From Saccostrea cucullata (taxonomy: Eukaryota): a stretch of DNA of 54,547 nucleotides. The notes under the pieces were generated by a model. It saw only the letters and a program-made list of their open reading frames with translations, was not told the origin of the DNA and did no database searches. Positions within the stretch are counted from its first letter, which is position 1; each line of letters opens with the position of its first letter. The position numbers and the translations under genes were made by a program. Where the stretch lies: the NCBI RefSeq assembly GCF_032062105.1, contig NW_026940018.1:930001-984547 (forward strand). The letters are read 5' to 3'. Below are positions 13,575 to 19,995 of this stretch, in pieces.

Positions 13575-13713
13575 AACTGTTTGACCTTTATCTCAGAGTG
13601 ACCTCCTTAAATCTTCTGAAAAGTTAGTACTAGGGCTGTTGTATATTTCACAGCTTTATTCCTTATAACCAGAGCTTCTCCGTCTCCAAGTTCCTTTGAC
13701 GATTGATCACACT

Positions 13714-15069
13714 CACCCCTACTAATGTGTTGGGGAACCTTTTAACACCTGCAAATTATAAAACCCGATGAGTTCAGAGTAGCTCTGGCAGTGGCTCTGG
13801 CGAGAGTTAGCGAGACTTCAGAGAGATAGGGTAAATTATTCACGGAAATGTAGCTAGGAAGTGACTAGCACGTGGAGGCATGGTAAACAGAAAAGTTATG
13901 TTGCGTTTCAGTTTTCACCACCCTAGAATCAGCTGATAATGTCTGTTGAAATTTACTTCAGTCAATCGATCTCTTTTACATTCATTCAGACTTGAATAAG
14001 TATTCTCTTTACTACAATTTTCTGCAGTCATGAATTCAAATTTCTTTTTAATATTTTTTCATGAACCCGGACTATATTTTTTTGGCGTCAGATTATGAGG
14101 CACCGGCACGATTTTAACTGACCAATCAGCTGAATGAGTACAGTATTGCATTATGGGTTACTACGAATACTACAGGAATTTTACGTTTGAGAAAAAGAAA
14201 AATCTTATGGTAAATGAAAAGCATTTTTAAAAATATTATTTTCATGCTTATAATAACAAACAATTCATTTGTTAAATAAACGTCGGAAGTCTAAGTTTCT
14301 GAAGTCATACTGCAAAAGTAATTTGCGTCTGTATTAATTCCTTCGTTGTACTTTCGGTGAATACAATTGCCAGGTGAATTCCCTGGCCGAACACGTGATC
14401 AAGAACGTAAAAAAGTTTTGTCCATTTAAATGCATAAGAGATGCTTCTCGTTTTCCTTACCCTTGAAGCGCTTGTGTTCTGAACTAGACACAAACTACAT
14501 TTTATTAAACTTTTTTTCCATTTAACAACAAATTAAAAACGCCTGTAACATCTTTCATAATCTTTGTATTTTGTTCATTTCTTTTATATTGCAGCCCATT
14601 AACATGATCATAGATTGAACTGAACTACGTGTTCGAAGTAAAATGTAAACATGTATTTGGCGTAAACGTTGCTATTCATTCAACGATTGGTCAGTTGCTC
14701 GTGGTGAGATCCCCTGTGCGAATTTATAACAATAGCCATATAAGGCAAACAAAGGTTTGTCAGTGTAGATGATAATTCACATTTTTTACCAGCGAATCGG
14801 TCACTAGTGAGCTCTAATTTTTGCCGAAAAGTATAAGATATATTGTTATTTTAACATCCCCTTCTTTAGCCACCCTTTTTCTGTTGAAAATCATGAAAGT
14901 CTTTTTGGAAAAATTTATTACAGGACATCTTTTCAAAAGAAACAGGCTATAGCAATATATGTTTACTGCAGATTTTATTTATAAAACCGGGTTCTACCCT
15001 ATAACCTTTGAATAGATCAACCTAAACCACGTGTCTTGAATTTAAATCACAATAACATTAGTAGGTGTG
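13714..15069. mobile_element. Non-autonomous DNA transposon copy A, CAC...GTG termini, 5-bp TSD (Transib/RAG-like signature)
   Basis: TIR CACCCCTACTAATGT / ACATTAGTAGGTGTG. TSD ACACT at 13709-13713 and 15070-15074. Near-identical to 17190-18585. Confidence 0.85.
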
Positions 15070-15769
15070 ACACTGAACAGTGATTAAGTCAGCCCTTTTA
15101 TATAGGGGTCCTCAAATATAGCGAGAGTCCAATCGAAAATGGCGGACACATTCTTTTGACGAATTGTGTTCAGCTTTAAGGTTAACAGGGAATACATTTA
15201 GATATCTTAAACAAACTTTATTTTCTATTTTATTTTATTTATTTTTATTGCTTTTTATTTTTTTTTATAACGTTTTATACTACTTTTTAAACAACCATCG
15301 GAGTTCGTTATATAGATAGCAAGTTTTCTTTCAATATCACTCATTTCAGTCGACAAATATTTAATGATAAGCAATAAGTCATTCAAAATTGTTTGGTATG
15401 TGTTTGCATATATAAATATGGAAAAAAGCATCAAAATAAAGCATTGAAGAGGTCATTCAGGTGATTCAATTAGATGCATGTTTTATTCAATTAAAAAAGT
15501 GATAATAAAATGAGCAGTTGTTCTGAAAGCAAAAGAAATTCGAAATACCGTAAATGGTTATAAATACAATGTACATTTGAAAATATTATGCAATATAATA
15601 TTTACCTTAATTAATTCTTATTTTATATTTAAAGTGATGAAAAAAAACATGGTCCAAAGATCTTTCAAACAAAGATAACATTAATGGAGTTGACATGATT
15701 CAGATCTGATATTGACAATAAGCTTGGGAAGAACAGCCCAGCACACTTAGCGAAAGTGAGCTTTTGTTT

Positions 15770-16428: not shown

Positions 16429-17189
16429 TTCTAAACGAAAAAATACGAGTTTTTGTATGTTCCGGAGGCGCAGAAATTACATATATGGAAACATTTGAAA
16501 AATAGACCCAGACATATACAACTTTACGTTTTAGGGGCAGTTATTTGAAAGTAATTGATTATAAAGATTAAGCATAAATGTTATAAAGTATAAACGTGTT
16601 CACCTTCTTAGTTTAAAGAAATTAAGTAAAAGTAAAAAAAAAAAATCTATTTACCAAAAAGAGAAATGTTTCAAGAGATTGCGCTCTATATTAAACGGAG
16701 TTTTAAAAAATGATACCTTGAATTTTCGATTTCACCCATTTATAAGTCCACTGGGCAGAGAGAAAAATTAGGTGCATTTTAACAATCATCTTGTTAAATC
16801 TTCACTTTAGTTCGTCAACACAGCTCATTGACAACGATTGTAACACGTGATCTCTCTTATGACGTCATAATGTATGACACAACAATTCTTTTTACTTTTT
16901 CTTTCTTTTTCTCTCTCTCTCTTTTAATACACAATTTACATGTAAGTTTTTCGTGATAAAGAGACAAAGAAGAATTTCAAATTTTGAAGAAAAAAATCAA
17001 AATTTGACGCATTTTGGCCATTAAAATCTTTGTTGAATGCAAGGAAAGGTCCACTAACTAGTGTCAAATGGTTTATTAATGCCAACTCTTTTTATATGCA
17101 TGATATGGGAGTTGACGATGTTTTCCTTTGAAGTCAGGTATCAGATCTTAAAATATTGTAAGATCTCCGGAAATGGCCAAGCTTAAGAT

Positions 17190-18585
17190 CACCCCTACTA
17201 ATGTGTTCGGAACCTTTTATGTTTCGGTATTCTGCAAATTATAAAACCCGATGAGTTCAGAGTAGCTCTGGCAGTGGCTCTGGCGAGAGTTAGCGAGACT
17301 TCAGAGAGATAGGGTAAATTATTCACGGAAATGTAGCTAGGAAGTGACTAGCACGTGGAGGCATGGTAAACAGAAAAGTTATGTTGCGTTTCAGTTTTCA
17401 CCACCCTAGAATCAGCTGATAATGTCTGTTGAAATTTACTTCAGTCAATCGATCTCTTTTACATTCATTCAGACTTGAATAAGTATTCTCTTTACTACAA
17501 TTTTCTGCAGTCATGAATTCAAATTTCTTTTTGGACGAATATTTTTTCATGGGAACCCGGACTATATTTTTTTGGCGTCAGATTAGCAAATGAGGCACCG
17601 GCACGATTTTAACTGACCAATCAGCTGAATGAGTACTAGTATTGCATTATGGGTTACTACGAATACTACAGGAATTTTACGTTTGAGAAAAAGAAAAATC
17701 TTATGGTAAATGAAAAGCATTTTTAAAAATATTATTTTCATGCTTATAATAACAAACAATTCATTTGTTAAATAAACGTCGGAAGTTAAGTTTCTGAAGT
17801 CATACTGCAAAAGTAATTTGCGTCTGTATTAATTCCTTCGTTGTACTTTCGGTGAATACAATTGCCAGGTGAATTCCCTGGCCGAACACGTGATCAAGAA
17901 CGTAAAAAAGTTTTGTCCATTTAAATGCATAAGAGATGCTTCTCGTTTTCCTTACCCTTGAAGCGCTTGTGTTCTGAACTAGACACAAACTACATTTTAT
18001 TAAACTTTTTTTCCATTTAACAACAAATTAAAAACGCCTGTAACATCTTTCATAGTTTTTTATCTTTGTATTTTGTTCATTTCTTTTATATTGCAGCCCA
18101 TTAACATGATCATAGATTGAACTGAACTACGTGTTCGAAGTAAAATGTAAACATGTATTTGGCGTAAACGTTGCTATTCATTCAACGATTGGTCAGTTGC
18201 TCGTGGTGAGATCCCCTGTGCGAATTTATAACAATAGCCATATAAGGCAAACAAAGGTTTGTCAGTGTAGATGATATTTGCACATTTTTTTACCAGCGAA
18301 TCGGTCACTAGTGAGCTCTAATTTTCGCCGAAAAGTATAAGATATATTGTTATTTTAACACCCGGGCCTCCTTTAGTCACCCTTTTTCTGTTGAAAATCA
18401 TGAAAGTCTTTCAGAAAGGTCTGGAATAATTTATTACAGGACATCTTTTCAAAAGAAACAGGCTATAGCAATATCATGTTTACTGCCGATTTTATTTATA
18501 AAACCGGTTCTACCCTATAACCTTTGAATAGATCAACCTAAACCACGTGTCTTGAATTTAAATCACAATAACATTAGTAGGTGTG
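17190..18585. mobile_element. Non-autonomous DNA transposon copy B, CAC...GTG termini, 5-bp TSD
   Basis: Same TIRs and orientation as copy A. TSD AAGAT at 17185-17189 and 18586-18590. Confidence 0.85.
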
Positions 18586-19995
18586 AAGATGGGGACGCTA
18601 AAAATAATGACTGTTAGTACTACTGTACTAAAATCCTTGGACCTCTAGGGAAAAATAAGATTCATATTGTTCTCAACAAGACGTGATGTAAATCAGATGT
18701 GTACTCCAATCAAATCCAAAGGTTTAATTTAAAAAAAAAATTAAATCACTTCTTTTTTCAAAAGTCCATAACATAACCGTTCGACTTTTCTACACTTTAT
18801 ACAACCATTCATTATGGAAAAATTAAAAACTATGCTTTTTGGTACTATATACAAATAGTTAAAAAAAATTACTTCGTTGAAAATCATTCTGATTCTATAC
18901 ACAAATACTCAGAAATCAATTTTAAAAGAATTCACGAATTTCTCACTGATGACATTTTTGTAGTCTTCGGAGAAATCTTCTAATAAACTGTTGGAAACCC
19001 AATGGTCATTAAGTGTGCTCCTTTTTCCAACCGACCTGTTTTTTATGCATAAAGCAGACATTATTTTAAAAAATCAACATGAGAGGATTAAAGTACTTGC
19101 TGTGACCTTCAACTTTACATTTTTAATATATCAACGATTTTTTAAAATTTTACCTGAACGATGCGTTATGCATTTACTACAGGCTTACGGTGGGCGTGTC
19201 CGATCGTCAAGGAATGCTTTCTATTACTCATTCTAGGCACCTGATCCAAACTCTGTAATTTTCTGAAGTCCTGTTTTAATTATTCCCTGATCACAATATG
19301 TGATTACCGTTCGTTATATTAACCTTTTTCAACAAATCGAAGATGGAACTTAATTTTTGACAGGGAAGAGGGGAAATATCCAAAGGGGATAAGTTCAAAT
19401 TACAATCACGTTCTTAATTTTCCTGTGAGGTTTCAAAACATTTGTCTAAATAACTAAGTCCAATCCAATGCCATTAAATATCTAATGGTATGCCATAGAC
19501 ACCTGATGAAAAGATTTTAGTGTCGCATGAAGTATTTTGAAGGATAACGAAGGTATGTGGTCATATTTAATTATCAATCGAAAATTGCCCGTACAGACAT
19601 CTGATGTCTGTACACCGTCCAATATTTTTTATCTGTTATCCACAATTCTTACAAAATAATAAAAGTTCTTCCTAAATGGAGAAGGTGCATACACCAACCT
19701 GCTGTTTTTTTTTTGTTTTTGTTGTTTTTGACTGGTTAAAACGTCCAAAAATACCCTTCACTGCATATTCTTGATATTATGTAAAAAATTTGCAACACAT
19801 ACGTAACATATTATATTATAATATTTATTATTTCAAATATATTAATTTGTATTAATATAAAGAAAAACCAAGAATACTTTGGATAAATATACACACAAAC
19901 ATAAATATTTACCCGTATCACCAATATCAAATAATATAAATATTGTACAAAAAGAGTTTCTGTTCTTTTACGACGTCAACAGGTACTCATGCATG

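Follow-up and report, generated by a model that had tools for sequence, protein, structure and literature searches.

What are two near-identical, non-coding elements doing on either side of a small predicted gene in an oyster genome, and what kind of transposase could have put them there? The elements, which we call copy A and copy B, lie in a stretch of 54,547 nucleotides from Saccostrea cucullata (NCBI RefSeq assembly GCF_032062105.1, contig NW_026940018.1, positions 930,001 to 984,547), hereafter the window, in whose coordinates all positions are given. We argue here that the two copies probably inserted independently of each other and belong to a non-autonomous cut-and-paste family of high copy number that is moved by a transposase acting in trans, most likely one of the CAC-ended CMCT clade and likely not a RAG-like (RAGL) enzyme of the kind described from oysters. 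Each copy is delimited by TIRs (terminal inverted repeats) as well as by a target site duplication (TSD) of its own:

13709..13713, plus strand: left TSD of copy A, 5 bp, with the same letters as 15070-15074; no other length from 1 to 12 fits
13714..15069, plus strand: copy A, a non-coding TIR element of 1356 bp with TIRs at 13714-13728 and 15055-15069; longest stop-free frame 75 amino acids (aa)
15070..15074, plus strand: right TSD of copy A, 5 bp
17185..17189, plus strand: left TSD of copy B, 5 bp, present as a single occurrence at the empty site in sequencing run X1
17190..18585, plus strand: copy B, a non-coding TIR element of 1396 bp with TIRs at 17190-17204 and 18571-18585; longest stop-free frame 81 aa
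18586..18590, plus strand: right TSD of copy B, 5 bp, lacking, like the element itself, in the contig that spans the empty site

The copies share one orientation, are separated by 2120 bp and together span 4872 bp. The TIR pattern occurs exactly four times in the window, at the four element ends, with left and right 15-bp TIRs identical at 14 of 15 positions, and the window holds no third copy. The TSDs read ACACT for copy A and AAGAT for copy B; among lengths 1 to 12 only 5 fits either copy, and the chance of such a match is 0.0015-0.002 per copy and about 2e-6 for both copies jointly. The earlier note on this DNA had described twin elements with 15-bp TIRs and 5-bp TSDs of their own, and its coordinates, ends and orientation proved exact. 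Its description of the elements as non-autonomous also holds, given the short stop-free frames listed above and the lack of a Pfam match in all 18 frames of copy B; Rfam gave no match in 13000-21500.

Does the family occur elsewhere, and do its insertion sites exist without it? Reads of four runs (of 24 listed) were placed on 15040-21500, a stretch that starts inside the end of copy A. These reads are mostly 90-99% alike to the window and hence originate in relatives, not in the window's own individual; the account given here draws on 15 of their 203 joints, 24 of 1449 loose ends and 40 of 539 differences. In run X1, depth lies at 88,000-329,000 on copy B versus about 150-330 in the unique flanks, and in the two DNA contig sets the median depth of copy B exceeds that of six unique bins by a factor of 477 in X1 and 466 in X5, a ratio that is not a copy number. 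At position 18582, about 98% of the depth in the contig sets, and every one of 55 RNA reads, show the letter with which the right TIR would match the left one perfectly. An X1 contig of 676 bp (depth 129.8) runs through 16935-17189 and from there passes straight to the sequence beyond the right TSD of copy B. It lacks the element and exactly one TSD, and no footprint is left, so that the middle DNA joins the right flank directly, at single-copy depth. The elements thus belong to a dispersed multi-copy family, and in a relative the site of copy B is empty. Because the TSDs differ and because this site is empty in the relative, the two copies are best understood as two independent insertions, as had been proposed from the sequence alone. 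By read depth in the relative, 20008-21087 and about 15130-15190 are two more high-copy repeats, the latter starting about 60 bp right of copy A.

Where exactly does the element end? Judged from the two window copies alone, a 5-bp TSD of the form A-N3-T with CAC ends is indistinguishable from a 3-bp TSD with TCAC ends, and it is data from outside the window that set the end. Metagenome contigs scanned with an 18-letter TIR pattern yielded 32 loci, ten of which, from two assemblies, carry a sister end, while the remaining 22 were dropped as chance since they show no match beyond the search pattern. All ten sister ends have different flanks and lose homology at CAC, and the base preceding CAC is A in five, T in three and G in two of them. 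In seven of the ten, the match to copy B takes in the first 23 nt or more, with 18 of these 23 being the search pattern itself; the similarity of the sister end to copy B reaches about 68 nt, with unrelated sequence further in (score 34 versus a shuffle mean of 31). In run X22, 17 RNA reads exit the element immediately past 18585, and their consensus from there on begins with a letter other than A (at an agreement of only 0.51). Because of these sister-end flanks and exit reads we set the end at CAC and rule out the 3-bp TSD with TCAC ends. A solo long terminal repeat (LTR) was ruled out as well, LTR ends reading TG..CA and those of the pair CA..TG.

How might the two copies have come to lie so close together? 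We propose that a transposase made elsewhere would bind the terminal 15-23 bp of the element, excise it and make a staggered cut of 5 bp for its reinsertion, at targets whose composition is close to the background. That A and B are neighbours would then follow from high copy number or from local hopping; if 300-2000 copies were scattered at random over a genome assumed to measure 600 Mb, one would expect 0.16-7 pairs of the same orientation to lie as near to each other as these. The middle DNA would be a resident host gene that was bracketed by chance, and not cargo. It had also been suggested that the outer TIRs now form a 4.9-kb composite unit around the gene, which could be mobilised or deleted. 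Direct orientation indeed puts a correct left and a correct right end on the outside, with the predicted gene wholly within, and Ac/Ds elements that lie near each other are known to undergo alternative transposition (PMC3744419). However, the outer flanks of the pair show no direct repeat of 1 to 12 bp, the window holds no second copy of the middle DNA, and in the relative this DNA runs into the right flank without copy B and is therefore older than copy B. We thus reject a composite transposon as the history of the locus, and give hardly any credence to the idea that the 4.9-kb unit is, or moved as, one. What the pair shares with linked Ac/Ds elements is geometry only, that is, two nearby copies with ends that can be re-paired. 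Such a geometry would allow deletion or joint movement, and no such event is seen here. Macrotransposition is reportedly the subject of work by Huang and Dooner from 2008, to judge by its title.

The middle DNA likely holds a small, spliced host gene, for which four exons are predicted:

15770..15843, minus strand: predicted last coding exon; X22 RNA depth about 5 in bin 15688-15903
15916..16076, minus strand: predicted third exon, with splice signals and an open frame; 19 X22 reads up to 15978
16274..16430, minus strand: predicted second exon, 52 codons; X22 depth 32-39 at five sites
16736..16850 (putative 5' limit), minus strand: predicted first exon, with start codon 16739-16737 and donor at 16735; 14 X22 reads at 16768

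With an open frame of 131 aa, this four-exon model fits entirely into the interval between A and B, with 451 bp between its start codon and B and 701 bp on the side of A. Poly-A X22 reads cover the predicted exons; in the third exon, the reads pass at 15978 into diverged sequence in which, on manual reading, only the model frame stays open. The five X22 differences shown in exon 2 amount to two silent and three mild changes in the model frame. In the relative's RNA the same five introduce a stop into the longest open reading frame (ORF) with an ATG between the copies (113 aa, 16044-16385, minus strand), which we therefore reject as the gene, and cost a cysteine-rich, defensin-like-looking frame on the plus strand two of its cysteines, so that this candidate was rejected too. 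The gene had previously been given as 118 aa, and no ORF of that length was found between the copies. Its characterization as an orphan stands within the searches made, which found no convincing homologue of the exons. A match to a JGI repeat protein that itself has helix-turn-helix matches (P0022; E 3.2e-11, 31%) was discarded, as its score sums seven weak stretches of which the best single one reaches a tblastn E of 0.044.

Several observations weigh against the explanation of the locus proposed above. The evidence for an empty site covers copy B only, as the placed stretch begins at 15040, and the depth of the family was measured in relatives and not in the window's own species. Each sister locus offers one end only, which leaves the two window copies as the known cases of paired TSDs. 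No transposase for these TIRs was found in the data searched, so that the superfamily assignment rests on the end letters, and yet end letters are labile within Transib (preprint 10.64898/2026.08.26.747230). As for the middle gene, none of the 15 joints shown (of 203) is a splice-like RNA joint that would fit the model, and RNA depth in bin 16120-16335 exceeds what the model's first coding intron predicts.

The differences between A and B, which are rich in insertions and deletions (indels), bear on the age of the insertions. A global alignment of A and B contains 1341 matches, 11 substitutions and 48 gap columns, which represent 15 indel events (identity 95.8% by blastn), and all but three of the 11 substitutions fall within 10 nt of an indel. 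The other long duplicated pairs listed for the window, 29 in number, all show the opposite pattern, mismatches outnumbering gap openings. While the insertions themselves are real, their near-identity could in part be an effect of the assembly, if polishing with reads of a high-copy family equalised the substitutions and left the indels in place. We consider this unlikely, though by no means negligible, as the indels are multi-base and some of them are real alleles in a relative, such as the 3-bp gap at 18364 that is found in 13 of 14 X21 reads. Because the indel-rich spectrum may be such a polishing effect, recency is less certain than 96% identity implies. The proposal that the family was recently active therefore remains plausible and is weakened, both by the substitutions next to indels and by the possible contribution of polishing.

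Which superfamily, then, could supply the enzyme? CAC ends combined with a 5-bp TSD are typical of Transib (PMC1131882) and of protostome RAGL elements (PMC7204232), RAGL elements are known from oysters (PMC7204232), and membership in this Transib/RAG-like group had been the initial proposal. In its present form it would state that the family is a non-autonomous Transib/RAGL derivative and that the RAG1-like transposase moving it has come to prefer other ends and targets, which we regard as possible and rather doubtful. Within Transib, TIRs and TSDs do vary and the CACAATG-like heptamer is not invariant (preprint 10.64898/2026.08.26.747230), and the right TIR of the pair shares its first six bases, and 8 of 13 overall, with the end of the algal AanRAGL (5.5 expected). 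Nevertheless, the TIRs share 8-9 of 17 letters with the consensus of protostome RAGL, where 9.0 are expected for random sequence after CAC; they hold one of the three conserved A residues at positions 8-10; and they agree with the Transib heptamer at 3-4 of 7 positions, where 4.2 are expected by chance. The TIR core has no match in those RAGL supplements that were searched, and a survey of mollusc ORFs reports a single Transib ORF in 14,275 DDE elements (PMC10294476).

The target sites point in the same direction. Transib and RAGL targets are GC-rich (PMC1131882 for Transib), with 82.5% GC for PflRAGL-A. In contrast, the two TSDs have a GC count of 3 of 10 and the five bases flanking the sister ends one of 14 of 50 (28%), in agreement with the earlier observation that the targets are not GC-rich; the 15-bp target sites have a GC fraction of 0.40 and 0.47, compared with 0.346 for the window (34.6%). 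Compared by their sequences, the TIR, heptamer and target tests lower the link to Transib and RAG, and the likeness appears limited to CAC ends and a 5-bp stagger, so that membership in this group is not supported. CA..TG ends are common to most lineages of the CMCT clade, with TSDs of 2-5 bp (PMC12730594), and 5-bp TSDs are also made by hAT5.

The last-named lineage, placed among the animal hATs (PMC12730594), provides a tentative alternative, in which the pair would be non-autonomous hAT5 elements. The hAT group is one of the commonest DDE groups in bivalves (PMC10294476), and hATs prefer AT-rich targets (main text of PMC1131882). At 50468-51018 the window contains a 551-bp element with CAC-starting 49-bp TIRs (94%) and a perfect 8-bp TSD, and because of this element CAC is not specific to the CMCT clade here. 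Another CAC-ended feature, a hairpin-like miniature inverted-repeat transposable element of 140 bp at 24452-24591, has an exact 5-bp A-N3-T flanking repeat in a low-complexity flank, possibly a degraded 8-bp TSD. hAT ends usually read CAG or TAG, unlike those of the pair; a short TIR would be a further shared trait. The likeness to hAT5 is a likeness to its description, with a 5-bp TSD and an animal lineage, and no hAT transposase is linked to the pair. Taken together, we would give an enzyme of the CMCT clade about an even chance, the larger part of it falling to a Transib lineage and the smaller to other CMCT lineages; hAT5 would be about as probable as the Transib part, and an unknown type of enzyme about as probable as the other CMCT lineages.

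Comparison with described systems illustrates how far the resemblance extends. Non-autonomous Transib elements (Hopper/Kodama, TransibN1_AG, TransibN1_SP; PMC1131882, bioRxiv 2026.08.26.747230) resemble the oyster pair in their CAC ends, 5-bp TSD, size of about 1.4 kb and lack of an ORF, whereas the pair has no CACAATG-like heptamer, no GC-rich targets, a TIR of only 15 bp and no known linked transposase. The protostome RAGL-B of oysters and its non-autonomous forms (PMC7204232) share 5'-CAC, the 5-bp TSD, a conserved end of about 15 bp and oyster hosts; they differ from the pair, whose TIR is at chance level to their consensus, has no AAA block at positions 8-10 and comes with no RAG1L or RAG2L remnant that we could see. 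Chapaev/EnSpm (CMC) elements have the same CAC..GTG ends but a reported TSD of 2-4 bp (10.64898/2026.08.26.747230), in contrast to the 5 bp of the pair.

Could the sister ends reveal the autonomous partner? Apart from the metagenome loci, the TIR scans gave seven matches in viral contigs, none of them related to the element, and no match in GTDB genomes; no long copy with coding capacity was found among the 39 loci of these scans. One metagenome locus, L020, carries a frameshifted, intronless HECT (PF00632) remnant at 3970-4851 on the minus strand, 1.7 kb inside the sister TIR. Its best named protein matches come from Crassostrea virginica and Magallana gigas, and its relatives in Crassostrea virginica occupy the four loci LOC111100619, LOC111103136, LOC111109119 and LOC111109790 at 97-99.5% identity, a multi-locus identity as expected of transposon cargo. 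None of the 23 frames of L020 gave a convincing Pfam match, and neither the viral contigs nor the other 38 loci contained a relative of the HECT remnant. A bold reading of these data would be that the ends, conserved in at least two oyster lineages, mark an undescribed CMCT/Transib lineage with 5-bp TSDs that lacks both a recombination-signal-like heptamer and a GC target bias, and whose long members carry an intronless HECT ubiquitin ligase as cargo; we consider this quite improbable. In L020 no far TIR and no TSD partner were found, and with no far end, TSD pair or transposase to tie it to the TIR, the HECT remnant may be an unrelated neighbour.

The surroundings of the pair are rich in repeats. 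Satellites of 150-170 bp are abundant in the window, and arrays with units of 147, 162 and 168 bp together with dispersed 21-bp repeats occupy 3666-4529, 30772-32280, 45370-47628 and 48325-51634; the 168-bp unit matches L020 at about 70%. At 8849-9226 there is a 378-bp element with 55-bp inverted arms (91%) and no clear TSD, whose arms presumably include a tRNA-like T-arm motif. A tandem array of five paralogous genes with proline/glutamine-rich N-termini extends over 10715-45135 on the minus strand, with exon copies at 10715, 21009, 26826, 35827 and 43147. From a motif we take these genes to be PLAC8/cornifelin-like; Pfam gave no confirmation.

What does the pair mean for oyster genomes? TIR transposons already account for the largest share, 46-48%, of the structural variants related to transposable elements in Crassostrea (bioRxiv 2026.02.10.705023), and because of this the finding is of little significance as it stands. 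The pair represents ordinary transposon turnover and one more TIR family; no published description of it was found in the literature searched, and Repbase, Dfam or further supplements may already name it. Gene presence/absence variation occurs in bivalves, and deletion or movement of genes by such pairs would be one route to it: here, a small gene specific to the lineage could be deleted or moved by the pair, although neither is seen to have happened. The 15-23-bp end can serve as bait for the partner transposase in oyster assemblies. Should that partner turn out to be Transib/RAG1-like, with ends that lack the heptamer and targets that are AT-neutral, the family would serve as a test case from nature for the ways in which enzymes of the RAG family can change the ends they recognise and the targets they choose.

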